NCBI GenBank assembly: GCA_963588415.1
Contig: CAVAHB010000127.1
Span: 1 to 44,056, forward strand
Direction: 5' to 3'
DNA from: Faecalibacterium sp. CAG:74
GTDB lineage: Bacteria; Verrucomicrobiota; Kiritimatiellia; RFP12; UBA1067
DNA: 44,056 nucleotides
The position numbers and the translations under genes are program-made. Shown here in pieces: positions 11,023-41,182 of the stretch. Position 1 is the first letter of the stretch. Each line of letters begins with the position of its first letter. The notes under the pieces are model-generated. The model saw only the letters and a program-made list of their open reading frames with translations, was not told the origin of the DNA and did not search any database.

Positions 11023-11343
11023 TCAATTCTGCAACAGTCCGCCCATTGCGGGCATCTCGACGGTCTCCCTCACGGTCAATTGCTCCGAACCGATGATGTA
11101 TTCACAGGCCAGCGGTTCGAACTCGACCGTGTCGCGCTTCGTGGCCGACGAATAACCGGTTCCGAAGCCGCTCAGGGCCTTCACGCCCGCCTCGCGGCGG
11201 ACGGTTCGCTGCATGTCGAGTGAACTCAGGATATAGGAAGTGAAACCGAAAAGCGCCGCGAGGACGAGCGCGAGCGCGAACATTCCCAGCGCGAGTTCAA
11301 TCATCGCCTGACCCGGACGGTGCGCCGTGCGTTCAGTGGCCAT
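11023..11343 (-). CDS. TadE-like pseudopilin
   Basis: ORF 11023..11370, trimmed to the ATG at 11343, which overlaps the upstream stop by 11 nt. The N-terminus RPGQAMIELALGMFALALVLAAL resembles TadE/Flp-processed pseudopilins. Confidence 0.55.
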   Translation of the reverse strand: MATERTAHRPGQAMIELALGMFALALVLAALFGFTSYILSSLDMQRTVRREAGVKALSGFGTGYSSATKRDTVEFEPLACEYIIGSEQLTVRETVEMPAMGGLLQN

Positions 11344-12736
11344 GGCTCGTGCCTCCGTGACTGCCGCCACCGCCCGAACCGCGTACGCACGAACCCGCGT
11401 TCATGCGAATCCACCAGACGCCCGACTCGCGGAAGGAGGCGCGTTCCCACGTGGAGAGTTGCTGGCAGTAGAAGCATCCCGCCACGTGAGGGCCTTGCAG
11501 CAGATATTCCGGCAGGTGCTTGCGGATGTGATCAACCCATCCGACATCCGCCGTCGCCAGATCTTCACCGCCTACCGCGTCAATCGCCACAAGCCGCACG
11601 GACTCGAAGCACGGCACGACGAAGCCGGCGAGCGCGGTGACAACGCCTTCGCCGTCCTCCGTCTCGACCGTACCGAACGGCTTCGCCGCCGCCGTCCAGT
11701 TGAATTCCGAGTAGTCGTCGTCCGAGACGGACGGCGTTTCGGCAACACACCGGCAAATTGCCGCGCACCCGCGCACGTTGTACTCGGGCTTTACCTCGCC
11801 GACAATCGGGAAGTCGTAGTCGTCGCCCGAAAGGCGAAGCCCGTCGAACCACCGCGACCAGCGTCCCGTGTCGTAGAAGAACCAGACCTGCTCGCGGTTC
11901 GTGATTAGGTGCGAGCGGAGAAGTTCCTCCTCCGTCACGGGAGAATCGCCGTATTTCTGCGAGAGCGCGGCAATCTGCTTCAGGGAAAAGACGTCCGTCA
12001 GGGCTCCCGTCCACGCCTTGAGGTGAAGGGAGAAGACCTCGCTGTTTTCCATCGATTCCTCGCGCCGCGAGGGAAGCGGACCCCAGTCGTGATAGGTGTG
12101 ATAACTCGTCAGCACGCCTTCGGCATTGAAGTGGAACCAGCACCAGTTGCGGCCCGAAATCGCGTAGTAGAAGTTGCGGTTGAGAAGCAGGTGGCCGCCC
12201 TGCGCGTCGTAGAACTCGCAGTTGTCCGGCCCGACCGCAAGACCGCCCGAGACCGCCGTCTCCAGTTCCGCCGCGTATTCGTTCCACGCGCCCGGCCACG
12301 GTTCGGGATACGGCTCGCCCTCCGCGTTCGTGCCGCCATTGTAGACGGTGCGAATCGTATCGACGTGCTCCTTCAGGATGCGGGCGAAGTCATCCCGCGT
12401 TTCCATGCCGTTGCGCATCGCCGCCTCGTTCGCCTTGCGCAGGCCCTCGATCGGGCCGAGCAGGGCCTTGCGCCGCTGGGTCAGCACGACTTCGGCACAT
12501 TTCTCCGCGTCGTTCGCCGCCGCGGCGCGGACGTGTTCGAAGTTGAGCCGACCGATTTCGTTCAGCAGCAGACCCTGAACGCGAGCCGCCGCGAGAGCCG
12601 CCGCGTCACCGCCGTTCTGCACGCGGTTCTTCGAGCGGACGGCGAGGAAGACATCCACGTTCATGAGCACAAGCACGCAGAGGACGACAATCGTCACCGC
12701 CAAGTAGACTGCAACCTGTCCCGTTCGCGCTTTCAT
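11333..12736 (-). CDS. TadG-like Flp-pilus assembly protein
   Basis: The N-terminus MKARTGQVAVYLAVTIVVLCVLVLMNVDVFLAVRSKNRVQNGGDAAALAAA matches the TadE/G-like N-terminal signature (hydrophobic helix, xVD, then DaAALAaa). The C-terminal tail is Gly/His-rich. Confidence 0.65.
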   Translation of the reverse strand: MKARTGQVAVYLAVTIVVLCVLVLMNVDVFLAVRSKNRVQNGGDAAALAAARVQGLLLNEIGRLNFEHVRAAAANDAEKCAEVVLTQRRKALLGPIEGLRKANEAAMRNGMETRDDFARILKEHVDTIRTVYNGGTNAEGEPYPEPWPGAWNEYAAELETAVSGGLAVGPDNCEFYDAQGGHLLLNRNFYYAISGRNWCWFHFNAEGVLTSYHTYHDWGPLPSRREESMENSEVFSLHLKAWTGALTDVFSLKQIAALSQKYGDSPVTEEELLRSHLITNREQVWFFYDTGRWSRWFDGLRLSGDDYDFPIVGEVKPEYNVRGCAAICRCVAETPSVSDDDYSEFNWTAAAKPFGTVETEDGEGVVTALAGFVVPCFESVRLVAIDAVGGEDLATADVGWVDHIRKHLPEYLLQGPHVAGCFYCQQLSTWERASFRESGVWWIRMNAGSCVRGSGGGGSHGGTSHGH

Positions 12737-12740
12737 CGGT

Positions 12741-13247
12741 CTACCGTCCCTGATCGTTCATATAAAGAGGAAAGTGCGATTCCATTTCCGCCGCGCCCTC
12801 CATGCGGATGGGATTTTCGTTCCCGTCCCCGTAGCAGAAGAGGCGGGGAATGTCGAGACCGATGGCGGCTTCCACGGTCGGGGAAACGCCGCCCCCCGAT
12901 TCGACCGCAACATCCATCGTTTGCCAGCGTTCGTATTCAAGGATGCCTCGTGCGAGGGATTCGTTTTCAGCGCTGAGGTAGTCGGGCACGCGGGAAACTT
13001 CGGCGAAAGCCGCGTCGCCATCCGGCCAGAGCATTCGGCCGGCGACGGGAAGCATGGCGACACGCGCCGACTTCAGGCACATGAAGTCGTTGAACCCGAC
13101 CGCCCTCGCCCGGGCCGCACGGGCGGCGGCGTGGTCAAGAAGAATCCGCGCCGTCAGCAGGTGCGAGAGTTGGAGTAGCCCGAACAGGATGAAGGTCACG
13201 AAAACGACGGCAAGCATCGTTTCGACCATCGCCTGACCGTGGCGCAT
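12741..13247 (-). CDS. TadE-like pseudopilin
   Basis: The N-terminus MRHGQAMVETMLAVVFVTFILFGLL has a G/QAMVE processing-like site followed by a hydrophobic helix. Confidence 0.65.
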   Translation of the reverse strand: MRHGQAMVETMLAVVFVTFILFGLLQLSHLLTARILLDHAAARAARARAVGFNDFMCLKSARVAMLPVAGRMLWPDGDAAFAEVSRVPDYLSAENESLARGILEYERWQTMDVAVESGGGVSPTVEAAIGLDIPRLFCYGDGNENPIRMEGAAEMESHFPLYMNDQGR

Positions 13248-15754: not shown

Positions 15755-18364
<2,610 letters not shown>

Positions 18365-18381: not shown

Positions 18382-19275
18382 TCAACGAGAAAGGGCGTCC
18401 ACGACGCCGCGCCAGTAGCCGACGCATTCGGCGACGGGCGCGAGGTTGTCCTCGAAGTCCTTCTCGTATTCAAGCGAGCACACGTTCGAGTAGCCGATGT
18501 CCATCAGGGCGCGAATCACGCGCACGTAGTCGATTTTGCCGCGTGGAAGCGGAATCGCCGCGCCGTTGCGCTTGCCAATCTCAAAGTTCTTGATGTGCAT
18601 GTCGAAGATGCGGTCCGCATGCTTGTGAATCGTCTCCACGGGATCGACGCCGCACCCGTATTCCCAGCCCACGTCCATGCAGAAGCCGATGCGCGGGTCG
18701 AGGTCGTGGATGAGTTCCCAGCCGGACGCGACCGACGGGAACATATCCGGCGAATCCGGCCCGTGGTTGTGAATCGCGTAGCGGATGTCGAACTCCTTGA
18801 CCAACTTGTCGATGGTGAGGAGGAGTTTACGCGAACCCCTGCGCTTGTTCCAGGAGTCCTTCTCATCCGTCGGCTCGTACGGCACGCCGACGACGGTCTT
18901 CACGCCGAGCCGCTTCGCATACTCGAACGCCTTCCGCGCAAAGGCCTCGTCCTTCATGTAAATCGGCCCGACGGCATACGGCACGACATCCGCGTCGGCG
19001 CACTTCGCACGGAACGCCGCCATCTCCGCATCCGTCGCCGACAGCGGCAGATGGAAGTCCTTCACGCAAAGGTAGTGGATATCCACCTTCTTGAGGATAT
19101 CGAGCATTTCCACCAGCTGCTTGCGGCACATCGTGAACCCCGCCATGCCGAACTTGAAGCCGGGATGAACCTTGCCGCCCGCCGCCACCCCGGCCGTCGT
19201 GCGGCATCCGCCGACAAGCGAAACCGCCCCGGCCGCAACGGCCGAACCAAAGAAACCTCTGCGCGTCATTTCCAT
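18382..19275 (-). CDS. Tat-exported sugar phosphate isomerase/epimerase-family (xylose isomerase-like TIM barrel) protein
   Basis: ORF 18382..19311, trimmed to the ATG at 19275, with AAGGAC 7 nt upstream. Has the twin-arginine motif MEMTRRGFFGSAVAAGA. It is a paralog of 42601..43566. Confidence 0.75.
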   Translation of the reverse strand: MEMTRRGFFGSAVAAGAVSLVGGCRTTAGVAAGGKVHPGFKFGMAGFTMCRKQLVEMLDILKKVDIHYLCVKDFHLPLSATDAEMAAFRAKCADADVVPYAVGPIYMKDEAFARKAFEYAKRLGVKTVVGVPYEPTDEKDSWNKRRGSRKLLLTIDKLVKEFDIRYAIHNHGPDSPDMFPSVASGWELIHDLDPRIGFCMDVGWEYGCGVDPVETIHKHADRIFDMHIKNFEIGKRNGAAIPLPRGKIDYVRVIRALMDIGYSNVCSLEYEKDFEDNLAPVAECVGYWRGVVDALSR

Positions 19276-19331
19276 CTGCTTTGTCCTTTCTTGACTTACC
19301 CCGTGCCTCAAACCCGCACGGAGCGGCTCAC

Positions 19332-19363: not shown

Positions 19364-22300
19364 TCACCGAATGTCAAGTTCGAAGATGGAGATTCCGTAA
19401 TCCGTATTGCGTTCGAGTCCCGTGAGACGCAGGTAGCGGGCCGAAACGGGACGCCACGCCACCGCGTCGTTCGCGGGATTGGAAACCGCGTGGTTTTCGA
19501 CTGCGGACGTCCACTTCTCGCCGTCGTCCGAGGTTTCGATTCGATAGCGCCGCGCATGGGCGTGCTCCCAGCGAATCGTCGCCCGCGAGACCGTCCGGGG
19601 CCGTCCGAAATCCAGTTGAAGCCACTCGCCGTCGCGGTGCAACGACCCCCAGCGCGTCTTCGGGTCGCCATCGACCGCATACGCCGCAAGCAAGCCGCCG
19701 TTCTCCTCGCCGCTCGCCGTCACCGTGGCAAGCCGCGCGAGGTTGACGTCCGCGAGGTTCTTCGCAACGATTGTCGCGATTGACTTTTTGCCCTGCAAGG
19801 TGACGGAGAGCGTGTACGTCCCCGCCTTCCGCGCAGTGAACCCGGTGCGCCCAAACTCCGCATTCCTGGAGTCAGAAAGTTCGACCGTCGCGCCCTTGAG
19901 GCGCATCCGCCCACCGAACTGGTCAAGTGCCTCAACCGAAAGTTTCAGGGGTTCGCCGACGATGCACTCCGCCGCGTCCGGCGCGATGACGAGTTTCGTG
20001 ACGCGCAACGCCTCCTCGACGGGAAACCGCCGCGAGACTTCCAGCGAGTCCGTCCGCGCCGTCACCGTGGCGAAGCCGTTCGTGCGCGGCGTGAAGTTTC
20101 CCCTGCGGTCAAACGTTCCGTCCGCGCTCGTCCACTTCACGCCCGCCGCGTCCGCGCCCTTCGCCGTGCGCAGGGCGAGGCGCGTCGCCTCGCCCTCCTT
20201 CAGGACGGCGCGGTCGGCGACGATTTCCGCCTCTGGGGCGGGCGCGACTGGCGCGGGCTTCGCAATCGCCAGCTTCGGCTCCCGAACAGCCGCGTGCTTC
20301 GTCCGTGCGCCGCCCACCGTGAGCCGGCCGGGTTCGGCGCGGAGCGTCCCGACTGTTTCGCCCGCCGCGTCGAAGAAGCGTACGGTGCGCGGCTCGCTTC
20401 CGGCGTTGTAGGCCATCAGCGTCCGCTTCCCGTTCCTGACGAAGGCGCGTGCGCAGGGATAGTCGGCCCGTACGCCGAAGTCGAGGTCGCCGTAGGCGAG
20501 GTGGCTGTGAATCGCCCAGTAGGTGAGATGACCCGTGTCGGCATTCTTCACGACCCCGCGATCAGCCTTCGCGAGTGCGGCGAAAATGCGCGCCGCCGCC
20601 TCCGGATCGCTCCGCTGGAGATAACTGAGGAGTACGTTCCCGAGCGAGGCGTCGCCGAGTTCCTTCTCCCAGCCCGAAACCTCCTTCGTCTTCCACATCG
20701 TCGCATAGTCCCACGCGGCGAACTTGCGGTCTTCGCTCAGGTAGTCGAGCGCGGGCGTGTTCGGCAGCCACTGGATGGAGTGCATCCACACGGGATCGCC
20801 GCTAAAATACGTCCACCAGCCGACGCCATGGCAGGTGAGGTTCGAGTTGTAGGGGTGTTTGAACTTCGTGTAATCGATGTTCTCGCGGTCGCGGTCGAAC
20901 CAGTATTCCGCCGTGCCGTGCGCCTCCGACACCCAGCCAAAGATGCCCGCGTCGCGCATCTCGCGGTCGCCGAGCGCGAGTCCGAGCAGATAGAGGCCGC
21001 CCCAGCCCTGCATCGCCTCGGAGGAGGACTCCTGTCCGTTGCCGTTGCCGTCGCCAAGCCCCCCGGCGAAGGAGTGCCCCGCCCACGGGTCGAACGTGCG
21101 GAAGAACGGGAAGCGCCTCTCGTCGCGCCGCCAGTTCGCGTAGTCGCTCGCAATGAGCCGCAGCATCGGCCCGAACTTCTCGCGGAAGTCCGCATCCACG
21201 AGACAGAGGAGTGCGCCCGAATAGGTGAAGTAGCCGTAATGGAAGTGGTGGTCGTTGAAGGTCTCTGAATCGTAGCTCGTCGATTCGCCGACAAGCCCGC
21301 CCCAGCGCGGCACATAGGAGAAGTAGAAGCGTTCCTCTCCGGGCGTCCACGTGAGCCAGTCCTCGAACTGTGCCCGCAGACGGTCGTGCGCCTTCTGGAA
21401 TGTCGCCGCATCACCCGTCCCGCGTGCCGCCATCATCGCGAGGGACATCTGCAGGAGTCCCTTGCCGCCCCAGTAGGTGTCGCCGCCGAAATTGCCGCGT
21501 TCGGCGTAGTCGTCGAGCAGCCGTTTGAACAGCACCGCATCGTAGGGGGCTTCGGCGAAGTCGTGCGCCTGCGGGGCCGCCCAATGCGGCAGCATGCCGG
21601 GGAAGGTGTAGACGATTGAGAGTTCGTTCCCCTTCGCCACGCGCTGCCTGCCACGCGGCGTCTGCCAGACGAGGCCCTCCATTACCTTGAACTTCGGGAC
21701 GGTGCGCTTCAGGTGGTGCGGCTGAAAGCCCTGCAACGCCGTTGGCGCGGCGGTTTTGCCGTGCAGATCCTCCGTCTCCACGCGCCACGTCGTCGTGAGT
21801 TCCGCCGTCCGTTCGTCATACGCCCAGTCCACGCGCGTCGATCGGACGATGGCGGCGGCGAACGGCGCGAGCGCGGCGAACGCCGAGCGGTTCGGCAGAA
21901 GGCCGACCGCGAGCCATCCCTTCTTCTTCCCGCCGGGGAAGGTGAAGGCGAGCGTTCCGTCCGCCCGTTCCGCGACCCGCGTCTTCGCCGGATGCCACAC
22001 GCCGTAGAAGTCGTCGCCCGCCTTCACGACGACGGCGTTCTCCTCCGCAAGCCGCTCGACCGAAACCGCGCCTTCGCTCTCGACCTTGAGCGTCGCGTCC
22101 AGCCCCTCGTATTCGACCCATGTGAAAGGCGAACCGTGCACGAGCGTCGCCCGCATCGCCTTCGCCTCGCCGTCCGGCAGGAGGAGTTCCACGTCCCAGT
22201 CGTGCCAATCCGCCACGTTCGCCGCGCTCGGATTGAACGCGGGCGCTCCGCAGACAAGACGGCTTCGCGCCTTCATCTCCGTGCCGTCGTCAATCCAATA

Positions 22301-22618
22301 ACTCGGAAACGCCACGCTCACGCCCTGAGCCGAAGCCCGCACGAGGGCGGGATAACTCCAGAGGTTGCCCGTCCAGCGTTCGACGAGCGCATCCGTCCAC
22401 CAGTCGTTCGTCGGGATCGGCTCGCCGGACTTGCGAACCAGGTAGAGCGGACGGTTCTGCATGAACCGGCTCTGGTCGCCCTTGCGCGAACCGTCAACCG
22501 TCCGCGCCTTCGCCCACGGCGTGTACGAGGCGTAGGAACCCGCCCCGCAGGGGACGATTTCCTGCGCGGCGAGCGCACCCGCCATCGCCGCACCGACAAC
22601 GGACAAAACAGATTTCAT
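19364..22618 (-). CDS. secreted GH81 endo-beta-1,3-glucanase with C-terminal Ig-like and discoidin (F5/8 type C) domains
   Basis: 1084 aa with a signal peptide. GH81 hallmarks NDHHFHYGYF and GQESSSEAMQGW are present. The C-terminal DGDPKTRWGS...WLQLDF segment is a discoidin-type module. Confidence 0.85.
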   Translation of the reverse strand: MKSVLSVVGAAMAGALAAQEIVPCGAGSYASYTPWAKARTVDGSRKGDQSRFMQNRPLYLVRKSGEPIPTNDWWTDALVERWTGNLWSYPALVRASAQGVSVAFPSYWIDDGTEMKARSRLVCGAPAFNPSAANVADWHDWDVELLLPDGEAKAMRATLVHGSPFTWVEYEGLDATLKVESEGAVSVERLAEENAVVVKAGDDFYGVWHPAKTRVAERADGTLAFTFPGGKKKGWLAVGLLPNRSAFAALAPFAAAIVRSTRVDWAYDERTAELTTTWRVETEDLHGKTAAPTALQGFQPHHLKRTVPKFKVMEGLVWQTPRGRQRVAKGNELSIVYTFPGMLPHWAAPQAHDFAEAPYDAVLFKRLLDDYAERGNFGGDTYWGGKGLLQMSLAMMAARGTGDAATFQKAHDRLRAQFEDWLTWTPGEERFYFSYVPRWGGLVGESTSYDSETFNDHHFHYGYFTYSGALLCLVDADFREKFGPMLRLIASDYANWRRDERRFPFFRTFDPWAGHSFAGGLGDGNGNGQESSSEAMQGWGGLYLLGLALGDREMRDAGIFGWVSEAHGTAEYWFDRDRENIDYTKFKHPYNSNLTCHGVGWWTYFSGDPVWMHSIQWLPNTPALDYLSEDRKFAAWDYATMWKTKEVSGWEKELGDASLGNVLLSYLQRSDPEAAARIFAALAKADRGVVKNADTGHLTYWAIHSHLAYGDLDFGVRADYPCARAFVRNGKRTLMAYNAGSEPRTVRFFDAAGETVGTLRAEPGRLTVGGARTKHAAVREPKLAIAKPAPVAPAPEAEIVADRAVLKEGEATRLALRTAKGADAAGVKWTSADGTFDRRGNFTPRTNGFATVTARTDSLEVSRRFPVEEALRVTKLVIAPDAAECIVGEPLKLSVEALDQFGGRMRLKGATVELSDSRNAEFGRTGFTARKAGTYTLSVTLQGKKSIATIVAKNLADVNLARLATVTASGEENGGLLAAYAVDGDPKTRWGSLHRDGEWLQLDFGRPRTVSRATIRWEHAHARRYRIETSDDGEKWTSAVENHAVSNPANDAVAWRPVSARYLRLTGLERNTDYGISIFELDIR

Positions 22619-22639: not shown

Positions 22640-24424
22640 TTATTCCGCGACGTATTCGATGTCGTCGAGATAGAACGTGAACGGGTCGCCCTCGTTTGCG
22701 AACGAGAAGCCGAAGCCCGTCTTGATCGTCGAAAGGTCGAGACCGTCGAGGGGGATGCGATAGCGCGTCCATTCCCTCTTGAGAACGACGCCATCGAGTT
22801 TCGCCTGCGCCGTGTCGTGGTATTTGCCCTTTTCGAGACGCCCCATGAAGAAGTCCACCTTCTCGCCGCCCTTCGCGCCACGCGCCCAAAAGACGAGCGT
22901 CCGCGCATTCGAGAGGTTCGCTCCGCCGGACTTCTCGCCCCAGTCGTTCGGCGGGTCCTGCCAGAAGATGCCCGCCCAGCCGTAGTGGTCGAGATAGTCG
23001 ATCTTCATGCAGGTCTCGCCCGAACGGGGATTCTCGCGGCACTTCTCGTCCACCTTCAGCGCACGGGAATGACCCATGTAGCCCGACGGATACCACTTTC
23101 GCGGCGCACCGTCCACGTAGACGGCATACGGCATCGCGACAGGCTTCAGCACGCGCCTCGGCTCGGCGCCCTTCGCCCGAATCGGTCGGTTCGCATACGC
23201 GGCGTTCCCCTTCCCGTCGAAGACGTAGCAATAGAGGAGGTAGGTTCCGCCACCCGGCAGTTTCACCGTCGCCCTCGGCGTTCCCTGCCCCTTCACGACC
23301 GCGCCCGCCCAGCCGTCGGGAACGGGCAGGCCCGTCCCAATCGTGTCGTAGTCGCCCGTGTCGCTGACGAGTTCCCAGCGGTAGGTAAGCGCGTCGCCGT
23401 CGGGGTCGGCGGCCTCAATGGCGGCCTCGACGGGTGTCGCCGCGTCCGTGAGGTCGTCGGCCGAAACGACCATCTCGCCCGTCGTCGGACAGCGGTTCGC
23501 GACCTTCGTCTCGCCCCACGCCTTCTGCACCGCCTCGACGCTCGCAAGCCGCGTCATGTCCGGGAGCAGCATTCCGTGCCATGTCGGCGTGGACTCGACC
23601 TTCCACCCCCACGTGAACGCATAACTGCCGAGACAGAACTTGCCGCGCTCGGCCTCGACGCTCTTCGCATACGCTACGGCGAACTCGCGGCCCTTTTCCG
23701 TGCTCGTCGGCTCGAGCGCGAGACCCCAGGCGTTCTTCGGGCTTTCCCAACTGCCGTGCGCACCGTATTCGGTTATCACGTAGGGCTTCGTCATCCCCGC
23801 CTTGCGCCACCGTTCGCCGACGCTCGCCGCGCCGCCATAGCTGTTGATGCCGAAGAAGTCGATGTCGGGGCAGAGCGTCCTGAATGCCTCCAGCGTCTCG
23901 TCGGGGATTTCCGCGACGACAGTCGTCACGGGATGATTCGGATCGACGGACTTCACCTCGCGGGCGAGGGCGTTGACGAACTTCCACATTTCCGTCTTGT
24001 GCGGATTGTTCATCTCCATTTCGTTTCCGAGCGCCCAGCAAAGCAGGTTCGGATGATCCTTCACCCGCCGCACCGTCGCCAGCACGTCGCGCCGCGTCGA
24101 TTCCAGCACGGATGCGTTCGTGTAGTCGAAGCCGTGCTCGGCGTGGCCGAGCCAGAAGCCGCACATCACCGTGAGACCGTTCGCCTTCGCCGTCGCAAGT
24201 TGCGCGTCGATGTCGTCCGCACCCCACGTGCGGAAACCGTTGCCGCCGATCTTCCTGAGCGCGGTCTTGTCGGCGCCGCCGCCCGCCCCCTTGATGAAGT
24301 AGGGCTTGCCGTCCCTTTGAAGCGTCCAATTCCCCGCGTGTCCGACGAGGCGCACCGTCCCCGCAAAAGCCGAGAACCCGAATGTCGTCAGCGCAACCGC
24401 CGACAAAAGTTGAAGTCCGTACAT
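22640..24424 (-). CDS. secreted clan GH-A glycoside hydrolase (GH5/GH2-like TIM barrel) with C-terminal beta-sandwich/CBM-like domains
   Basis: ORF 22640..24499, trimmed to the ATG at 24424 (signal peptide MYGLQLLSAVALTTFGFSAFAG). WALGNEMEMN carries the Asn-Glu acid/base motif. The exact GH family was not resolved by eye. Confidence 0.6.
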   Translation of the reverse strand: MYGLQLLSAVALTTFGFSAFAGTVRLVGHAGNWTLQRDGKPYFIKGAGGGADKTALRKIGGNGFRTWGADDIDAQLATAKANGLTVMCGFWLGHAEHGFDYTNASVLESTRRDVLATVRRVKDHPNLLCWALGNEMEMNNPHKTEMWKFVNALAREVKSVDPNHPVTTVVAEIPDETLEAFRTLCPDIDFFGINSYGGAASVGERWRKAGMTKPYVITEYGAHGSWESPKNAWGLALEPTSTEKGREFAVAYAKSVEAERGKFCLGSYAFTWGWKVESTPTWHGMLLPDMTRLASVEAVQKAWGETKVANRCPTTGEMVVSADDLTDAATPVEAAIEAADPDGDALTYRWELVSDTGDYDTIGTGLPVPDGWAGAVVKGQGTPRATVKLPGGGTYLLYCYVFDGKGNAAYANRPIRAKGAEPRRVLKPVAMPYAVYVDGAPRKWYPSGYMGHSRALKVDEKCRENPRSGETCMKIDYLDHYGWAGIFWQDPPNDWGEKSGGANLSNARTLVFWARGAKGGEKVDFFMGRLEKGKYHDTAQAKLDGVVLKREWTRYRIPLDGLDLSTIKTGFGFSFANEGDPFTFYLDDIEYVAE

Positions 24425-24435
24425 GATTTTCCGTC

Positions 24436-27400
24436 TTATCGGATGATGATTCTGAAGCCCTGTTCGCCGACGACGATCGACCCTTCGCCCGTCACGCATC
24501 CGTCGAACTGCGCGGCGGTGTAAGTTCCGCGGCGCATTTCCTTGCCGTTCACGAAGAGAGATTGCGCGGTCAGCGTCTCGCCGTTCAGGTCGAGCACGGC
24601 GTTTCCGCCTTCAAGGGAAAGGCTGTTCACGCGGAACGACGCAGTCAACTTCGCCCGCCCGAAGTCACGCACCGTCAGGCGTGCGCGGCGGAACCGCGAC
24701 GCGCCGTCGCATCGCGGGCCGTTCCCCGGCAGAAGCGTCGCACGGGTTCGCGGTCCCGGCGCGGTCGCGTCACCGTTCGTCAGCTCGCCGTTCGCGACGA
24801 CGATTTCACCGCCGTCGAGTGCCGTTTCCGCACCCGTCGCGAGGAAAACCGTACCCGCCGCCGAACACGGCACGGCGGAAAGTTCGTCCGTCGCGTTCCG
24901 GCCGCGGTTGCCGTAGGCCGTAATCGAGCCGGTAAAGAGGGTGAAGTCCGAATCCGCATCCGTCAGGCGCACGGCGATGCGTCCGCCCGAACCCGAACCG
25001 TGGACGGAGTCGAAGGTCAGCGCGTCGATCTTTCCCGCGTCTGCGGAAATCACGCCCGAGCCGTCGAGCGACCCGAAGCGCAGGTTCAGGCTGCCGCCCG
25101 TCGAGCCGCCGTTCGAGCCGTTCCACGCATAGCCGCGTGAGGAAATCTCGCCATTCACCTGCGCCCGGCCGAGCACCGAAAGCCAGACGAGTCCGCCGCC
25201 GGCGTAACTGGTGCTGTCGCCCGTGCCGGACGAGCCGTATTCCATCGGCTCGAACACGCTGCCGTAGACGACGTCGTTCGTCGCGCCCTCGCCGCCGTAG
25301 GAAGCCCCCGTGCCGCCCTTGTAGCCGGGACCGCCGAGATACCAGCCGCGCGTCCGCTTCTCGGGCTTGTTCAGTTCGCCGCTTCCCGCCGTGACCTGGA
25401 CGCCTTCCGCCACGCGCAGGTCGCCGCCGACCGACACCGCGACCGCCGCCGTCGGCTCCGCGCCCGCTTCGCCCGAACCCTCGTGCGTCCACACGCCGCC
25501 GTCGAGGAGCGCGTCGCCCGCAATTCGGAGCGGCGCATTCGTCGTGAGCGCGAAGGTGACGTAACCCGTCGCCTCGCCCGCCGGCTGAAGCCAGCCGCCG
25601 ACGGCCGTCAGGTTCGCCGGCCACGAGAGGTCGTTCGCCGCGAGGTCGCGCAGGAACACCACCGTGTCCGTCGCCGTCGGGACGCGCCCGCGCGACCAGT
25701 TCGCCGCGTCGCCCGCATCCGCCGAAACCGTGCCGAGGAAGAGATTCGCCGCGTCGCCCGCCACCATCGCCTTCGGCGAGGTCTTGCTGAAGACGGTCTC
25801 CGTCTCGTTCGAGAGCGCGAAGACGTAGTAGACGACTTTGTTCGGCGCAACTTCCAGCGTCTTCTCGTACGCCGTCTCGTCCGTCGCGGACGCGGCAATC
25901 TGCACCGATTCCGTCCAGCCGTCGAACGAACTGCCGCCGTCCGCCGTGCCATAGAGGAGGTAGAGCGCACCCGCCGGGACGCCCGCCTTCTGCACCGTCA
26001 CGCCGAAGGTAAGCGCGTTGCCCGCCCCCTGCGCGACCGTCGCCGCGCCGTCGAAGAGCATGTGGTCGTCGGCGAGGGCGATCGCCTTCACGTGCACGTC
26101 GCCCGTCTCGCCCGACACCTCGAACCGCCCGAGGAACGCCGCCTCGTCGGCGAAGGTCTCGCCGCCGTAGCGGATCTTCGGGTTCTCCCCGGCGAAGAGC
26201 GTCGAGTAGACCGCCTCCGTCGTCGCCTCGGCATGGGTGAAGACGAACTCCGTCGTCGCCCCCGTCTTCACGTTCACGTAGGAGGTGCCGCCCTGCCACA
26301 CGGCGTCCGCCAAGGCCGCCGAAAGCGTGATCGTGCCGTCGCCCACCGTCAGCGCAACGCCCGAAGCCTGCGCGGCGAGCTTGACCGCCGAGATGCTGCC
26401 CGCAATCTCCCGGGGCGTGCTCCACTGGAGTTCGTTCACGTTCGCAAGCGTTCCGCCGCACAGGCTCACGCCGTCCGCAAGCGCAAAGGTCTTCTGTTCC
26501 GAGAAGGAAAGCGTTCCTCCGATCTCCATCGTCGCGCCGTTCGCCATGTTGAACGCCGTCGCCGTAAACGAGCCGCCTTCGCCGATGGTCAGTTTCGCCG
26601 TGCCGTTGAGGTTCATCTGTCCGGCGGTTCCCATGTCGAACGCCGCGCCAGACCCGACCGTAATCGTCCCGCTCACCTGCATCCAGGCGTTGCCGCCAGA
26701 CTGGCGGAAACTCCCGCCGGTCAGCGTCAGGGAGCCGTCCGCGTCGATCGTGAGGTCGCCGCCCGGGACGTATTCGCACGCACCGGAATCGATGACGACG
26801 GCATCCCCCGCCGCCGGCACGCCTTCCGGACTCCAGCAGGCGGCCGTCTGCCACGTTCCGCTCCCGCCCGTCCATGTCTTCACGTCCGCCGACAGGTCGA
26901 ACGTCTGCGCAAGAGTCGCCGCGGCGACCATCGCCGTCTTGACAACTGTATTCATTTGCCCACCTTCTTTCGCTTGTGTTTTTTCGTAGTAAACGTATCC
27001 CGTCGCCGCGGCAAAGGCGGTCAGCCCGGCCGCCGCAAGTCCCCAGCCCGCCGCTTTCAGCCAGCCGCCGGAGCGACCGCACGGCGGCTCAAACGCGCCA
27101 CCGGTCGCCCGCGATTCGGCGGTGGACTTCGCCCTTCGCGCCGCGTACTGACTTTTGAGTAGGGCGTCCACGAGGGCAAGTTCGCCGTATTCGCGCAACC
27201 TTTCGGGCGACTTCGCCGCACATTCGACCACCTTTCGCCGCGCCCCGATCCCCTCGTTCCCGTCCAGCGCCCTGGACATCAGGCCCTCGAGTTCGGTCGC
27301 GTCCCCGAAGTCGCGCTCGAACGAACTCTCGGAAATCCGGCAGAGCCGCATGATGCATTCCGCCAGTTTCCGCCGCGCATACGTGAGGCGGTTGCGGATT

Positions 27401-27870
27401 TCCCGTGAAGTCGTCTTGTGAAGTTTCGCCATCTCGCGGGGCTTCCGGTCGTCCCCGTACCGTTCTTCCAGCATTTTCAGCGTTTCCTCGTCAAGTTTGC
27501 GCTTGCAGATTGCAAGCCGCGTCATCACCGGCAGGTCGGTCGAATCGCACGCCGCGTAGGTTTCGGCGAGCCGCTCAAGCGCCGTTTCGCCGAACACCAG
27601 CCGCTCCGCACCCTTCTTCGCGCGAAACGCGAGGATTTGCATCTTCGCAAACGCAATCAGCCACGGCAGGAGCGGACGCGACGGGTCGTAGTCGTCCACG
27701 CGGCGGATTACCGCAAGGTTCGCATTCTGCACCACGTCGTCGATGTCGTCGGGAAAGCACGAAAGCGCCGCGCCCACGAAGGCGCGCAGCACCTCCTGAT
27801 GCGTGACGAGTTCCGTCATCAACTTCTGTACGACCGGCGTTTCCATTCGCTTGTCTGTTTCTGCTTGCAT
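24436..27870 (-). CDS. ECF-type sigma factor fused to an anti-sigma-like linker, a TM helix and an extracytoplasmic beta-helix repeat domain of about 840 aa
   Basis: A single 1144-aa ORF with no in-frame stop. Region 2-like DDVVQNANLAVIRR...LPWLIAFAKMQIL and region 4-like REMAKLHKTTSREIRNRLTYARRKL are present. The TM helix spans about residues 270-295. Gly/Thr/Ala-rich autotransporter-associated beta-strand-like repeats follow. An internal ATG at 26955 has AAGGTGG upstream and a signal-peptide-like MNTVVKTAMVAAATLAQT. Confidence 0.7.
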   Translation of the reverse strand: MQAETDKRMETPVVQKLMTELVTHQEVLRAFVGAALSCFPDDIDDVVQNANLAVIRRVDDYDPSRPLLPWLIAFAKMQILAFRAKKGAERLVFGETALERLAETYAACDSTDLPVMTRLAICKRKLDEETLKMLEERYGDDRKPREMAKLHKTTSREIRNRLTYARRKLAECIMRLCRISESSFERDFGDATELEGLMSRALDGNEGIGARRKVVECAAKSPERLREYGELALVDALLKSQYAARRAKSTAESRATGGAFEPPCGRSGGWLKAAGWGLAAAGLTAFAAATGYVYYEKTQAKEGGQMNTVVKTAMVAAATLAQTFDLSADVKTWTGGSGTWQTAACWSPEGVPAAGDAVVIDSGACEYVPGGDLTIDADGSLTLTGGSFRQSGGNAWMQVSGTITVGSGAAFDMGTAGQMNLNGTAKLTIGEGGSFTATAFNMANGATMEIGGTLSFSEQKTFALADGVSLCGGTLANVNELQWSTPREIAGSISAVKLAAQASGVALTVGDGTITLSAALADAVWQGGTSYVNVKTGATTEFVFTHAEATTEAVYSTLFAGENPKIRYGGETFADEAAFLGRFEVSGETGDVHVKAIALADDHMLFDGAATVAQGAGNALTFGVTVQKAGVPAGALYLLYGTADGGSSFDGWTESVQIAASATDETAYEKTLEVAPNKVVYYVFALSNETETVFSKTSPKAMVAGDAANLFLGTVSADAGDAANWSRGRVPTATDTVVFLRDLAANDLSWPANLTAVGGWLQPAGEATGYVTFALTTNAPLRIAGDALLDGGVWTHEGSGEAGAEPTAAVAVSVGGDLRVAEGVQVTAGSGELNKPEKRTRGWYLGGPGYKGGTGASYGGEGATNDVVYGSVFEPMEYGSSGTGDSTSYAGGGLVWLSVLGRAQVNGEISSRGYAWNGSNGGSTGGSLNLRFGSLDGSGVISADAGKIDALTFDSVHGSGSGGRIAVRLTDADSDFTLFTGSITAYGNRGRNATDELSAVPCSAAGTVFLATGAETALDGGEIVVANGELTNGDATAPGPRTRATLLPGNGPRCDGASRFRRARLTVRDFGRAKLTASFRVNSLSLEGGNAVLDLNGETLTAQSLFVNGKEMRRGTYTAAQFDGCVTGEGSIVVGEQGFRIIIR

Positions 27871-27996
27871 ATTATCTTATTCCTCAATCCTGTTTTGCTG
27901 AAACTTTTTCCAAGAATCTTTCATCCGCCGCACAGCCATCCTTCATCGCACAAACTTTACCGACCATAATCTACACATTTCCAACTAGTTGATGTA

Positions 27997-28005
27997 ATTA
28001 TACCA
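27997..28005 (-). promoter_or_regulatory. extended -10 element TGGTATAAT for the sigma-fusion/GH operon
   Basis: Minus strand reads ATGTCA-N17-TATAAT, with TGG preceding the -10. This gives a leader of about 120 nt to the ATG at 27870, which has GAGGA upstream. Confidence 0.5.
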
Positions 28006-28164
28006 AATCTGAGGCAACCTGACATTAGCCTGAAGTTTACTCGTTTTTCACTGGGGGCCCGATTCTGACCACGGAGGCAATTGCAAGACTTCCTGCGGGC
28101 GGGCGCGACACCCGCCCCGACCGTGCGAATACGGTAGGGTCACGCATCCCGCGTGACCGCCGCA

Positions 28165-28202: not shown

Positions 28203-28415
28203 CCCATATATGGACAACCCCCGAGTCCATATATGGAGAAACCGAAATCCATATATGGACAACCCCCGAGTCCATATATGGAGAAATCAAAATCCATATA
28301 TGGAGAAACCGCTGGCCATATATGGAGAACGAGTTGTCCATATATGGATTTGCGTTTGTCCATATATGGAGAACGGTTTGTCCATATATGGACAGCACCC
28401 GAGTCCATATATGGA
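28203..28415. repeat. array of ten 12-bp palindromes (TCCATATATGGA) at 22-23 bp phasing
   Basis: CCATATATGG occurs at 28204, 28227, 28249, 28272, 28294, 28316, 28338, 28360, 28382 and 28405. Spacers fall into two classes, CAACCCCCGAG-like (11 nt) and GAAAYC...-like (10 nt). This gives a partial 45-bp higher-order unit. Confidence 0.97.
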
Positions 28416-28499: not shown

Positions 28500-28540
28500 T
28501 ACCACACAGGCATCACGAACGCGGTTGCGGCTCGGATTTT

Positions 28541-28665
28541 ACCACTGAACACACTGAACGGCCTTCGGCCGACACAGAATACACTGAACTTGCCATCGGG
28601 GGGAGGCCGAGCCGACTTTCAGTGTGTTCAGTGTGCCGCGAAGCGGCTTCTGTGTGTTCAGTGGT
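28541..28665. repeat. 125-bp nested-hairpin element, copy 1
   Basis: A perfect 13-bp outer stem, ACCACTGAACACA (28541-28553) paired with TGTGTTCAGTGGT (28653-28665). Inner mini-hairpins are GGCCTTCGGCC (28560-28570) and GCCGCGAAGCGGC (28635-28647). The arms are built from ACACTGAAC sub-repeats. About 111 of 125 positions match 43660-43784 with no gaps. Confidence 0.9.
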
Positions 28666-28691
28666 CGAAACCGCCGGGCGGGGCGAGTTTT

Positions 28692-28714
28692 ACCACTAAA
28701 CACACTGAACGGCC
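28692..28714. repeat. left-arm fragment of the 125-bp element
   Basis: ACCACTAAACACACTGAACGGCC, preceded by the same GTTTT as copy 1. It diverges into a CGACGAAAGTCG mini-hairpin. Confidence 0.75.
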
Positions 28715-28731
28715 GACGAAAGTCGCCCTCT

Positions 28732-38569: not shown

Positions 38570-38584
38570 GGTCAAGTGGCGCAT

Positions 38585-38614
38585 AGTATACCATTTTCCG
38601 CCGCACTCCGTCAA
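38585..38614 (-). promoter_or_regulatory. promoter for tRNA-Cys (TTGACG-N18-TATACT with TGG)
   Basis: Minus strand reads TTGACG (38609-38614) then ATGGTATACT (-10 hexamer at 38585-38590). The tRNA 5' end is about 15 nt downstream of the -10. Confidence 0.55.
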
Positions 38615-38632
38615 TGGGGTGCGTACGCGCGT

Positions 38633-41131
38633 TTACGGCACGTCGTTCGGCGGAAGTCGCCGGCAGCTGACCGGACCGAGGAGGCCGGCATCCTCCAGCG
38701 GCCACGCCGCCGCGTCGAGAATCCCCGAGGCGCCGCCGCACGTGCCTTCGATGGTGCGCATGTTCGCGTCCTCGAAATACTTCCACTTCACGCCCGTCCG
38801 GTCGTTCCAGCGCAGGCGGTTCGCGCCCGTGTTCGTGACCTCGACGACCAGTTCGTTCTCGTCCTTCAGCGCGCCGGCGGGCACGTCGAAGCGATAGGGA
38901 GGCATGAACCGGCAGCCGAGGTCGCGTCCGTTCAGCCAGACGCGCGCCGAGTGCCGCACGTCGCCGAGGTCGAGAACCGCCGCCGTGCCATCCGTGCGCG
39001 GCGCGGCGAAGCGCGTCTCATAGCGCATCGTGCCACAGAACGGCTCCTCCTCGCCCGTTTCCGTGCGCGACCAGCTCGTGAGCGCACGCATCGTCCGGGG
39101 CTTCGGCAGCCGCGGCCCGCCGCAGACGGGCGTCAGCGTCCAGTCGCCCGCGATGTCGATCCGCGCACCGAGCGGACGCGCCGGCGCGACCGCCGAGGCC
39201 GGATCGGGCGCCGCCGAGACGGCATAGACGGACGACCCCCACGGGCCCAGGCGCACGCGAACCTTTCCGTCGGCCGTCCGCGCGCCGCGCACGGCCCCCG
39301 TCAGCGGGTCCATCTCCCAGGCCGCGCCGCAGGGGACGGAGACTTCCAGGTCTTCGGCGACCGGCTCCGCGCCGCCGTTGGCGACGAAGTAGAACGTGCG
39401 GCCGTCCGCGTCCGCCCGCCGCCACGCGGCGAGGCCGCGCACGGCGGCGAACGGCTCGACGCGCAGCCCCCGCGCGAGGTCGAGGACGCCGCGCCGCGAG
39501 ACGCGCGGATGCCCCTTCGCGAAGAGTTCCCGCAGCTCGCGCGTCTCCGCGTCGTGATTCAGGTAGCCCGGCGTCTCGTCCGGATACGCCTCCGCGAAGA
39601 CGACCTCAAAGCCCGCGTCGGCCAGCGCGAAGAGCCGCCGCGCCGTCGCGAGCGGCAGGGCCTTCGTCGCCGGCACGAGAATCCGCCGGTGCGGCCCGCG
39701 CCCGAACGCAAGCCGCGCCAGCTGGCGGTCGGACACGTAGTCAAACTGGACGCCCGCGTCGAAGAGCGTCCGCGCAATCCGCCCGAAGGGCAGCGCGTCG
39801 AACCAGTTCGCCCGATTGTGGACGGACATCGCCAGCGCGAAGCCATCGGGGCTGCGCCAGAAGTCGTGGATCGGCCAGTAGACGAGCAGGTCGTCGTCGC
39901 ATTTCGTCGCGCGGGAGACCGACTGGACGCGCGTCACGTAGGCGTTCAGGAAGCCGAAGTCGCGCCAGAGGGGGTTGCGGGGGTTCGTCTCGGACGAGGC
40001 GTAGAAACACCAGCCGGGCCACGCGGCATCGGTCGGCGAATAGCAGAGGCCGTGGTAGTAGACCTTGTCCACGCCGGCGAGGAGCAGGCGGTCGAGAAAC
40101 CGCTTGTAGTCGAGGGGCGTCTCGCGGAAGTGGTCGTTCAGCCACGTGCAGGACTCGGCGGAAGTCCACGCCTTGCCGCCGAGGTGGGCGGACGACGAGG
40201 CGAACTTCGAGACGAGGACGTCGCGATCGAAGAAGCCATACATCTCCGTCTCGGGGAAGTCGGCGAGGTCGTAGAAGTCGAGCCAGTTCGCGACGGAGCC
40301 GTGCGCCTCGTTCCGCGTCCGGATGCCGCGTGCGTGGCACCAGTCCACCCACTTCGGGAAGACGTCCTCTATAACGAGGTCGGAGAGCGTCTCGCGGTAG
40401 TCGTGCTTGAGGCGCCGCCGCGTCTCGACGTCGCCCGGGCCGCCGGCGAAGGCCGCCCAGTGCGCCATCAGGTCGTAGCCGCGCTTCTCCATGAAGAGGC
40501 GGGGGAAGTCGGGCGTCCAGCCCGCGTCGAAGTATTCCCACGAGTCGTGGTAGAGGCGCAGGGGCTTCGCCGCGCCCGGTCGGTCAAAGGCGTCCGTGAA
40601 CGGCTTCAGGAACGCCGACATCGCCTCGACGGAGTAGGGGTCCATCATCGGGCCGCGTCCGCCGGGCCCGGCCCGCTTGACCTGCTGGCCCGTCAGGCGC
40701 GGCTCGACCCACGGGGCCTCGCCCCCCTTCGTCCTCGCGAGCGCCCAGCAGCCCTGCTCGCGCGTCAGCTGCGGTCCGCCGAAGCACCAGCCGCTCCCGG
40801 TCGTCAGATCAACGCCGAGGCCGTGCGCCGCACCAATGCGGACGGCCGCCGCGAATGCCTTCATCCACGAGTCGTCCAGGAACGTCCTGAACGCGGCCTC
40901 GTGGCCTTTCGCGCCGTAGATGGGAATGACGTGGAAGCCGCCGAAGCCCTGCTCGGCGAGCGCACGGCATTGCGCCTCCAGCCCGGCCTCGTCGACCGCG
41001 CTGCCCATCCACCAGTTGTAGACCCACGGCCGCGTCTCGTTCGTGACCGTCGGCCACGCCGGCGCCGCCGACGACGCGGCGGACGCGACGACGCCCGCGA
41101 CGAAGAGGGCGACCGACCGCATGTTCATCAT
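38633..41131 (-). CDS. secreted glycoside hydrolase, GH106-like (alpha-L-rhamnosidase-like)
   Basis: 832 aa with a signal peptide. The N-terminal RPWVYNWWMGSAVDEAGLEAQCRALAEQGFGGFHV pattern is recalled from GH106-type proteins. The family call is tentative. Confidence 0.5.
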   Translation of the reverse strand: MMNMRSVALFVAGVVASAASSAAPAWPTVTNETRPWVYNWWMGSAVDEAGLEAQCRALAEQGFGGFHVIPIYGAKGHEAAFRTFLDDSWMKAFAAAVRIGAAHGLGVDLTTGSGWCFGGPQLTREQGCWALARTKGGEAPWVEPRLTGQQVKRAGPGGRGPMMDPYSVEAMSAFLKPFTDAFDRPGAAKPLRLYHDSWEYFDAGWTPDFPRLFMEKRGYDLMAHWAAFAGGPGDVETRRRLKHDYRETLSDLVIEDVFPKWVDWCHARGIRTRNEAHGSVANWLDFYDLADFPETEMYGFFDRDVLVSKFASSSAHLGGKAWTSAESCTWLNDHFRETPLDYKRFLDRLLLAGVDKVYYHGLCYSPTDAAWPGWCFYASSETNPRNPLWRDFGFLNAYVTRVQSVSRATKCDDDLLVYWPIHDFWRSPDGFALAMSVHNRANWFDALPFGRIARTLFDAGVQFDYVSDRQLARLAFGRGPHRRILVPATKALPLATARRLFALADAGFEVVFAEAYPDETPGYLNHDAETRELRELFAKGHPRVSRRGVLDLARGLRVEPFAAVRGLAAWRRADADGRTFYFVANGGAEPVAEDLEVSVPCGAAWEMDPLTGAVRGARTADGKVRVRLGPWGSSVYAVSAAPDPASAVAPARPLGARIDIAGDWTLTPVCGGPRLPKPRTMRALTSWSRTETGEEEPFCGTMRYETRFAAPRTDGTAAVLDLGDVRHSARVWLNGRDLGCRFMPPYRFDVPAGALKDENELVVEVTNTGANRLRWNDRTGVKWKYFEDANMRTIEGTCGGASGILDAAAWPLEDAGLLGPVSCRRLPPNDVP

Positions 41132-41182
41132 GTTTCTTCCCCTCGTTTGCCTGTGTCCGGGGTTGGCGGCGCTTCCGTCTCT

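Follow-up and report, generated by a model that had tools for sequence, protein, structure and literature searches.

The 44,056-nt contig CAVAHB010000127.1 (assembly GCA_963588415.1, from a gut Kiritimatiellota bacterium), hereafter the window, carries on its minus strand a single open reading frame (ORF) in which an extracytoplasmic function (ECF) sigma factor, an anti-sigma-like segment, a hydrophobic helix, a signal-peptide-like segment, and a large beta-rich domain follow one another in that order. An earlier description made from the window sequence alone (the preliminary description) had reported an ORF of 1144 aa here, in which a sigma/anti-sigma gene runs, with no stop codon between, into a gene for a secreted protein with its signal peptide. 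The minus-strand ORF is indeed uninterrupted from 24436 to 27870, all of the coordinates and gap lengths given for the locus are correct, and the joined parts are found separately in relatives. The ORF is laid out as follows:

24436-27870, minus strand: fusion ORF, 1144 aa, with no internal stop (terminator codon at 24436-24438)
27352-27822, minus strand: ECF sigma domain, regions 2 and 4 (residues 17-173; TIGR02989, Sigma70_r2)
27103-27330, minus strand: anti-sigma-like helical segment (residues about 181-256; four helices predicted, at low confidence)
26986-27063, minus strand: hydrophobic helix, presumed membrane anchor (residues 270-295, WLKAAGWGLAAAGLTAFAAATGYVYY; helix predicted for 269-298)
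26956-26985, minus strand: A-rich polar linker EKTQAKEGGQ, which holds the Shine-Dalgarno (SD)-like AAGGTGG at 26960-26966
26887-26955, minus strand: in-frame ATG (26955-26953) and signal-peptide-like segment MNTVVKTAMVAAATLAQTFDLSA (residues 306-328)
24439-26886, minus strand: beta-rich multidomain ectodomain or secreted protein (residues 329-1144, 816 aa), with the C-terminal tail GFRIIIR (24439-24459)

Parts of the fusion protein and their conservation

The frame is opened by an ATG at 27870, as previously given, but this ATG is not conserved: at its position some orthologs have ATG or GTG, and others have no start codon. The ATG at 27846 (METPV...) is the likelier conserved start. The conserved start is without an SD (duplex energy +0.2 kcal/mol, vs. 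-9.5 kcal/mol at the ATG at 26955, the internal start considered below); in the other genes of the window SDs are in use.

The sigma factor regions 2 and 4 recognized earlier at the N-terminus are well placed. Residues 17-173 match ECF models, best among them TIGR02989 (Sig-70_gvs1, "Rhodopirellula/Verrucomicrobium family"; E 6e-27, model positions 3-158 of 158), and the Pfam Sigma70_r2 match passes its cut-off (26 bits, cut-off 24). The nearest solved structure in the PDB is CnrH (E 1.8e-5). This is clearly an ECF sigma domain, placed in the TIGR02989 subfamily by best match only. The segment that follows it, residues about 181-256, is a probable anti-sigma element, judging from its position and from one hhalign match given below; scans of Pfam and NCBIfam found no curated anti-sigma domain in it. 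An AlphaFold2 (AF2) prediction for residues 1-330 (6-sequence alignment, mean predicted local distance difference test score [pLDDT] 58) is confident only for sigma region 2. It was dropped as a source on the packing of anti-sigma helices against the sigma domain, being uninformative beyond secondary structure. Anchoring of the fusion protein in the membrane would fall to the helix at residues 270-295, whose equivalents in two relatives with a different gene arrangement (P0009 and P0034, see below) are strongly hydrophobic.

The beta-rich domain had been likened to autotransporter-associated repeats (PATR). This did not hold up, as residues 306-1144 gave no match in NCBIfam at E<=1 or in Pfam at E<=0.1. 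The AF2 prediction for the C-terminal part (41-sequence alignment, mean pLDDT 89.4) consists almost entirely of short beta strands, arranged as a disordered signal-peptide region, two long solenoid-like strand stretches, an Ig/FN3-like sandwich, and a C-terminal sandwich. In whole-chain Foldseek searches of the PDB and BFVD, only sub-matches to Ig/FN3-like domains are reliable. No whole-chain match in the PDB, whether to a right-handed parallel beta-helix of the pectate-lyase-like kind or to another fold, reached E<=0.001. The top PDB match, the GH55 beta-1,3-glucanase Lam55A, was considered as a possible fold and set aside as too weak to use (E 0.012, TM-score 0.12); BFVD yielded one weak whole-chain match (E 1e-4, TM-score about 0.12). 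By sequence the domain is one of a large family: 1011 relatives in the library reach E<1e-3, and most of them have a signal peptide at the N-terminus. Members nearly all open with a normal signal peptide and, after it, a conserved x-TWTG...W.T..NW. They also share a C-terminal tail made up of Gly, a variable residue, three to four hydrophobic residues, and a terminal Arg or Lys, with Arg last in 112 of 162 (P0002-P0162). This tail resembles neither PEP-CTERM nor the C-terminal Phe of outer membrane proteins, and could be an unrecognized sorting signal in Kiritimatiellia/Lentisphaerae.

Five full-length relatives, 1136-1157 aa long and 70-82% identical to the fusion protein, were found in a homolog search. 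The same search, with genome and contig look-ups, identified ten further contigs, from different samples and assemblers, that have the same continuous frame (L006-L013, L018, and L019); a sigma factor and a presumed inhibitory extension in one ORF, the arrangement of the sigma/anti-sigma hybrids, are found in the window and in all ten. Between the hydrophobic helix and the internal Met the linker ranges from 9 to 13 residues among these orthologs, with several indels, all of them frame-preserving. By the Nei-Gojobori method, dN/dS is lowest in the sigma part (0.05-0.09), and is 0.17-0.35 in the anti-sigma-like segment and 0.21-0.36 in the beta-rich domain, at a dS between lineages of 0.45-1.5; the lineages inside the window clade are not independent of one another. 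Purifying selection acts on every part of the fusion protein. Because the frame is kept in ten contigs, the indels are in frame, and dN/dS is low, the fusion is old, real, and selected, and we regard it with high confidence as a genuine functional gene. The one-polypeptide sensor that the preliminary description offered as one of its readings is well supported by the selection on each part.

Candidate internal start site and related loci

An internal start was also part of that description, and its elements are where they were said to be: AAGGTGG (26966-26960) lies 4 nt before the in-frame ATG at 26955-26953, within an A-rich stretch. The SD duplex energy of -9.5 kcal/mol is the best among the 17 in-frame Met codons of the gene, and the mRNA fold here is within the least structured 2.4% of gene positions. 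Start sites were compared in 13 sequences in all, with SD rank and folding computed for 11 of them plus L020. A purine-rich element is present 4-9 nt before the ATG in each distinct fused sequence examined, despite differing linker sequence and length, the SD-like variants being AAGGTGG, AGGAG, GAAGGA, AAGGAG, GGAGG, and AGAGGAG. It is the top anti-SD match of the in-frame Met codons in seven of the 11 sequences, and also in L020. In all 11, the RNA from -30 to +33 around the internal ATG ranks within the 1-6% of positions with the least structure, and in all fused orthologs the G+C content at third codon positions (GC3) of the 12 codons before this ATG is 0.17-0.50, vs. gene means of 0.74-0.90. 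The junction of the window is not a product of chance, given its SD energy and fold.

The start-site features were also compared with synonymous recodings that followed the codon usage of the gene concerned. The dip in GC3 below the recodings is significant in seven of eight lineages, and the weak folding in most. This argues for selection on the RNA at the internal start, since a neutral relic of intergenic DNA should drift to genomic GC3 at dS near or above 1. The A6 run ahead of the SD is not conserved in orthologs, and programmed frameshifting or slippage of transcription on it was rejected for this reason. Whether the internal start is also used in translation we would put at about an even chance from these sequence comparisons. 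If both forms are made, TQAKEGGQMNTVVK, the peptide spanning the junction, would be diagnostic of the long one, and DVKTWTGGSGTWQ is the N-terminus expected of the short one after cleavage by signal peptidase.

The segment after the internal ATG has a basic n-region (K311), an h-region, and L-S-A ahead of D329, and can be aligned with the signal peptides that stand-alone relatives have at their actual N-termini; AF2 gives it low pLDDT with a short helix. In the fused forms its most hydrophobic 10-mer lies between the 1st and 25th percentiles, mostly 1st to 4th, of 67 stand-alone signal peptides, and its simple Hessa-scale sum of +6 to +8 is far from insertion-competent. Such a segment fits a compromise, one that could cross the translocon in the long form without acting as a stop-transfer sequence while exporting the short form. 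It is equally compatible with an export signal in decay.

Related loci differ in how the parts are divided among genes. Searching for orthologs, as the preliminary description had proposed, located the sigma factor as a separate gene in L004 and L020 and the beta-rich part alone, with a signal peptide of its own, in L001, L014, L002, and L015-L017. Two more distant lineages, in Kiritimatiellia-type MAGs, have two-ORF modules: P0009 in L004/L005 (41% identity with the full-length query) and P0034 in L020 (about 35%). At these loci a separate TIGR02989-type sigma gene overlaps the next ORF by 4 nt (ATGA). The second ORF has an anti-sigma N-terminus, a strong transmembrane (TM) helix, and a low-complexity linker of 60-85 aa rich in Ser, Pro, and Thr, followed in frame by an SD-like element, an ATG, a signal-peptide-like segment beginning MNTFTK... 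or MNTLQK..., and the beta-rich domain. Beside these loci too there are glycoside hydrolases (GHs), GH158-like in one case and GH16/GH10 in the other. The two-ORF modules thus share with the window the sigma subfamily, the order of parts, the beta-rich family, and the internal SD-ATG-MNT...signal peptide, and differ from it in having the sigma factor as a separate gene, a strongly hydrophobic TM helix, and the 60-85-aa linker.

Another arrangement is seen in L001 (P0007) and L014, which encode a stand-alone protein of 840 aa, starting MNRIIKLVLVV..., that is 82-83% identical to the C-terminal part of the window protein. Its N-terminal Met aligns exactly with the internal Met of the window. The gene is preceded by AT-rich non-coding sequence that has in-frame stops, a TTGACT-17-TATAAT promoter, and GGAGG; downstream is a GH158 gene, then one more gene. 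In a neighbour-joining tree of the beta-rich part the stand-alone form is sister to the window protein and nested in the fused clade (100 of 100 bootstraps), and a wider tree has a second such pair, with P0008 stand-alone beside P0009 fused. Because there are two of these pairs, the fused and stand-alone states must have interconverted at least twice. In the signal peptide of the L001/L014 derivative 11 of 24 residues are changed, vs. about 17% elsewhere in the protein, nearly all toward more hydrophobicity or charge, bringing it to the 84th percentile of stand-alone signal peptides. The internal site can suffice as a gene start, since the stand-alone derivative begins at this Met. Origin of this form by a simple deletion joining the upstream promoter to the internal start was discarded, its upstream DNA not being homologous to that of the window. 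The L001 (1-207) and L014 (1-331) contigs both end 200-330 nt upstream of the gene, just past the strong sigma-70 promoter, which suggests a repeat or strain-variable junction.

No adjacent but separate pair of anti-sigma and beta-rich genes occurs among the relatives found; the parts are either fused or unlinked. A word-based homolog search with residues 1-305 found no separate sigma relatives, only truncated, frameshifted, or chimeric contigs (P0014-P0016). Among these metagenome variants, one has the sigma N-terminus joined directly to the last 150 aa of the beta-rich part, one has the anti-sigma/TM part joined to GH81, and one is a frameshifted copy; they may be real deletion variants or assembly artefacts. 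Gene callers disagree on the family, calling P0007-type genes at the internal Met; P0004, P0034, and P0009 have no source annotation.

Operon and upstream region

Downstream of the fusion ORF, and on the same strand, are:

22640-24424, minus strand: GH158 gene, its product with a signal peptide, after an 11-nt gap from the fusion ORF; syntenic in relatives
19364-22618, minus strand: GH81 endo-beta-1,3-glucanase gene with a C-terminal F5/8 type C (CBM32-like) domain, after a 21-nt gap
18382-19311, minus strand: xylose-isomerase-like TIM barrel protein gene
15755-18352, minus strand: GH2 gene

The 11- and 21-bp gaps are those reported before. The GH158 product matches PDB 9oro over residues 23-417 (E 1.5e-79) and 6pal (E 6e-54), and the GH81 product matches PF17652 (E 4.5e-41), PF03639 (E 6.7e-6), and PDB 6fop (E 7e-79). 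GH158 and GH81 are both beta-1,3-glucanase families, which strengthens the link to glycan sensing originally suggested. From its gene content, the fusion ORF heads what reads as a beta-1,3-glucan utilization operon.

Two promoter-like elements lie upstream of the start:

27876-27903, minus strand: promoter-like motif in two blocks, TTTCAGCAAAAC-N10-AATAAG, immediately ahead of the start; candidate target of the fused sigma factor
27997-28025, minus strand: sigma-70-like promoter candidate ATGTCA-17-TATAAT with a TG extension, about 100 nt above the motif

In nine orthologous upstream regions there are two invariant blocks, AAAAA-G/T-T/A-TTTCAGCAAAAC and AATAAG-A/G-TA, separated by a variable 10-nt spacer. 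The motif is present once in the window. L009 has copies at 281-307 and 2680-2706, one of them ahead of the GH158 gene, which in this contig is its own unit upstream of the fusion gene. The stand-alone derivative has no such motif and has the consensus sigma-70 promoter instead. This is the pattern expected of a positively autoregulated target promoter of the fused sigma factor, which we infer the motif to be. A scan of the metagenome collection with TTTCAGCAAAAC-N10-AATAAG for a wider regulon gave 73 matches, all of them unrelated and mostly in low-GC contigs, which look like chance. At the sigma-70-like candidate a GGTATAAT block is common to L006, L013, and L018.

The intergenic region between the fusion gene and a divergent acyltransferase gene, roughly 1 kb long, also contains repeats. 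At 28204-28414 are ten exact copies of the palindrome CCATATATGG (the core of TCCATATATGGA), 22-23 bp or about two helical turns apart, where none would be expected by chance. The array is absent from all of the orthologous loci; its copies might be binding sites, or repeats of the iteron-like kind. At 28530-28720 there are direct and inverted repeats of TTACCACTGAACACACTGAAC / TTCAGTGTGTTCAGTG.

Possible function, alternatives, and known systems

The reading we favour, though with only about even confidence, is that the gene encodes a sigma factor, anti-sigma element, and sensor in one polypeptide, and probably gives rise to a free secreted isoform as well. It is built on the continuity of the ORF, purifying selection, homology of the parts, conservation of the start site, the promoter motif, and the content of the operon. 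The topology, proteolytic release, ligand, promoter specificity of the sigma factor, and use of the internal start would be as follows. The long product would be made from 27846 or 27870, where the SD is weak or absent. The anti-sigma-like helices adjoining the ECF sigma domain would keep it inactive, the lone hydrophobic helix would tether the protein to the inner membrane, and the beta-rich domain would be displayed outside the cytoplasm as a sensor. A glycan-related signal at this domain might then set off regulated proteolysis that cuts the tether, a mechanism demonstrated in IutY and RsgI, and the freed sigma factor could act at the TTTCAGCAAAAC-N10-AATAAG promoter to increase expression of its own gene and the GH158, GH81, and GH2 genes. 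Ribosomes would probably also initiate at AAGGTGG-N4-ATG (26955), giving a beta-rich protein with a cleavable signal peptide, and this short product would be a free, more abundant secreted isoform. For the stronger form of the proposal, that this is a two-product gene by design, in which an internal ribosome binding site and a compromise signal peptide provide for a scarce tethered regulator and abundant secreted copies of its sensor, our estimate is slightly below even.

A number of observations weigh against this reading. The sigma domain scores under the NCBIfam trusted cut-offs (94.5 bits vs. 124.55 for TIGR02989, 41.1 vs. 42.9 for TIGR02937). In hhalign, window residues 192-237 match the N-termini of the anti-sigma ORFs directly after the separate sigma genes of L004 and L020 at E 7e-5 with a probability of 62%, and the AF2 prediction for the anti-sigma-like region has pLDDT below 50. 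Of the single TM helix in the preliminary description the helix itself is predicted, but it is only marginally hydrophobic, with a Kyte-Doolittle 19-mer mean of 1.25 and a simple Hessa-scale sum of +3.9 in the window and of +2.8 to +3.9 across its clade. Similarly, the Sec-signal-like segment reported after the internal ATG has the n-region, h-region, and cleavage-site features and the alignment to go with them, but the hydrophobicity of the window h-region is at the 1st percentile of the family's stand-alone signal peptides. No fold family was found for the sensor, which has no PDB sequence match and no whole-chain Foldseek match in the PDB at E<=0.001. The internal SD is weak in the L007/L011/L012 and L004 lineages, and SD strength is no greater than in the synonymous recodings (P 0.06-0.96); it is inseparable from constraint at the protein level because the Lys, Glu, and Gly codons already encode an SD.

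A rival reading is production of the full-length protein only, with no free isoform, the Met, signal-peptide-like helix, and purine-rich codons being retained as a juxtamembrane segment that serves as a hinge, a site-1 protease site, or a translational pause. RsiV is cleaved by signal peptidase, and SD-like pausing can aid membrane targeting. The long product matters, as is evident from the unbroken frame and the purifying selection; an h-region much weaker than those of stand-alone relatives is as expected for a lost export role, amino-acid sequence alone explains the SD strength, and the small residues at -1 and -3 before the conserved K-T-W-T-G are kept, as a possible cleavage site. We nonetheless consider this somewhat unlikely. 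It gives no reason for three lineages, at 33-45% identity and with linkers of 10-85 aa, all to have kept Met-Asn-Thr, a basic residue, a hydrophobic core, and an AXA-like site; for a synonymous bias toward A/T-ending codons and minimal mRNA structure to occur precisely at this site; or for a lineage that has lost the sigma and anti-sigma parts to be able to start exactly there. A pause is disfavoured in particular, since it would need a constant distance to the TM helix, which varies from about 10 to 85 residues between lineages. A cleavage site on a helix lying wholly in the periplasm would be out of the reach of signal peptidase.

Alternatively, only the short secreted protein might matter, with the long fusion a neutral or mildly harmful by-product of a tolerated stop loss. 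Most family members are stand-alone secreted proteins, and stand-alone forms have arisen within fused clades. A dN/dS of about 0.06 for the sigma part is difficult to reconcile with this, however, as are linker indels that all keep the frame, the failure to regain a stop in an A-rich linker that is one mutation away from stops, and the finding that anti-sigma and beta-rich parts are fused or unlinked, and never an adjacent separate pair, in the relatives found; we consider it improbable. More doubtful still is a cytoplasmic location of the beta-rich domain of the long form, which would follow if the two weak helices paired as a hairpin or both stayed out of the membrane; the product would then be a sigma factor, soluble or peripheral, with a huge C-terminal regulatory extension. 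The first helix is marginal, as noted, and in the window clade the two are just 10-16 residues apart, but the TM helix of P0009 and P0034 is strongly hydrophobic and separated from the next helix by 60-85 residues, the second helix, at +6 to +8, is not insertion-competent, and the domain family is otherwise secreted. Finally, a lost stop or assembly error, which the preliminary description had left as a possibility, or a sequencing frameshift or recent pseudogenizing stop loss in one genome, might be suggested by the unusual architecture and by the frameshifted and deleted variants in some metagenome contigs (P0014-P0016), but is refuted by the same open frame at 70-82% identity in ten contigs from different samples and assemblers and by the in-frame linker indels.

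Sigma/anti-sigma fusions are already known from Proteobacteria and Actinobacteria, and ones with extracytoplasmic carbohydrate-related domains are known as well. Among the closest systems is IutY of Pseudomonas putida, an ECF243 sigma/anti-sigma hybrid whose sigma part is freed by regulated intramembrane proteolysis (PMC8999054). Like the favoured form of the window protein it is one polypeptide with an N-terminal ECF sigma factor, a fused anti-sigma element, one TM helix, and an extracytoplasmic domain. In IutY this is a FecR-type periplasmic domain, and there is a TonB-dependent siderophore receptor as partner; the fusion protein has no FecR match in Pfam (E<=0.1), and has instead an 816-aa beta-rich ectodomain that elsewhere occurs by itself in secreted form. 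IutY has nothing corresponding to the conserved internal SD-ATG-signal peptide, and the phylum and sigma subfamily (TIGR02989 type here) also differ. Proteolytic activation has been proposed for ECF52/SCO4117 of Streptomyces coelicolor, ECF48, and ECF53 (PMC5826349, PMC8999054). ECF52-type proteins similarly combine a sigma factor with a C-terminal anti-sigma element, one or more TM helices, and an extracytoplasmic carbohydrate-binding domain. They are actinobacterial and have a ZAS zinc finger and a proline-rich linker, whereas residues 176-268 of the fusion protein have no H-x3-C-x2-C and no His; no internal start or signal peptide is described for them.

Functionally the long form would resemble the SigI/RsgI systems of Clostridium thermocellum, in which polysaccharide sensing controls glycoside hydrolase genes via proteolysis (PMC10328401, PMC10556640). 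Here too the extracellular part of the anti-sigma factor is a carbohydrate-active or carbohydrate-binding module, but sigma and anti-sigma factors are separate proteins and the hosts are Gram-positive. RsgI has an autoproteolytic SEAL-type juxtamembrane domain, and none was found in the fusion protein. Its sensor modules are paralogs of working proteins, whereas here the sensor and the free protein would be isoforms from one gene. In-frame internal initiation is known to produce N-terminal proteoforms in bacteria, as in CheA-L/S, SpaO/SsaQ, and CcmM (PMC13515050), which resemble the arrangement proposed here in having one ORF, two products from an internal SD-ATG, and the possibility of different locations and stoichiometries. 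The literature searched describes no short form that acquires a Sec signal peptide and is exported from a gene whose long form is a sigma/anti-sigma regulator tethered to the membrane, and a search on ECF signalling in Kiritimatiellota found nothing relevant.

New here are the phylum, the triple fusion with an otherwise stand-alone secreted protein, the conserved internal start with its tuned signal peptide, and the toggling between architectures. To our knowledge almost nothing is known about regulation in the Kiritimatiellota, which are uncultured human-gut glycan degraders, and this locus is a compact, testable model in which a single gene goes with a single candidate promoter motif and a defined beta-1,3-glucanase operon. 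Should the internal start be used, the signal peptide would be tuned for two topologies, and among described ECF signalling proteins we found none that likewise releases its sensor as a separate secreted isoform from the same frame. With one isoform of its secreted protein the cell would be monitoring either how much glycan is available or what state that protein is in, and the retained internal start would let lineages toggle by simple deletion between fused (regulated) and stand-alone (sigma-70-driven) genes, a change of state seen at least twice. The series from three genes' worth of parts to two ORFs, one ORF, and a stand-alone gene presents modular regulators being built and dismantled.

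Elsewhere in the window, two adjacent ORFs at 11333-13247 (minus strand) have TadE/G-like N-terminal hydrophobic segments; the one of 467 aa has a Pfam Tad match, and the one of 168 aa has a similar N-terminus. The highest GC content of the window (0.69-0.74), at 38576-41374, corresponds to a GH106-like alpha-L-rhamnosidase gene on the minus strand. A 932-aa ORF antisense to this gene has no family match and is probably spurious.

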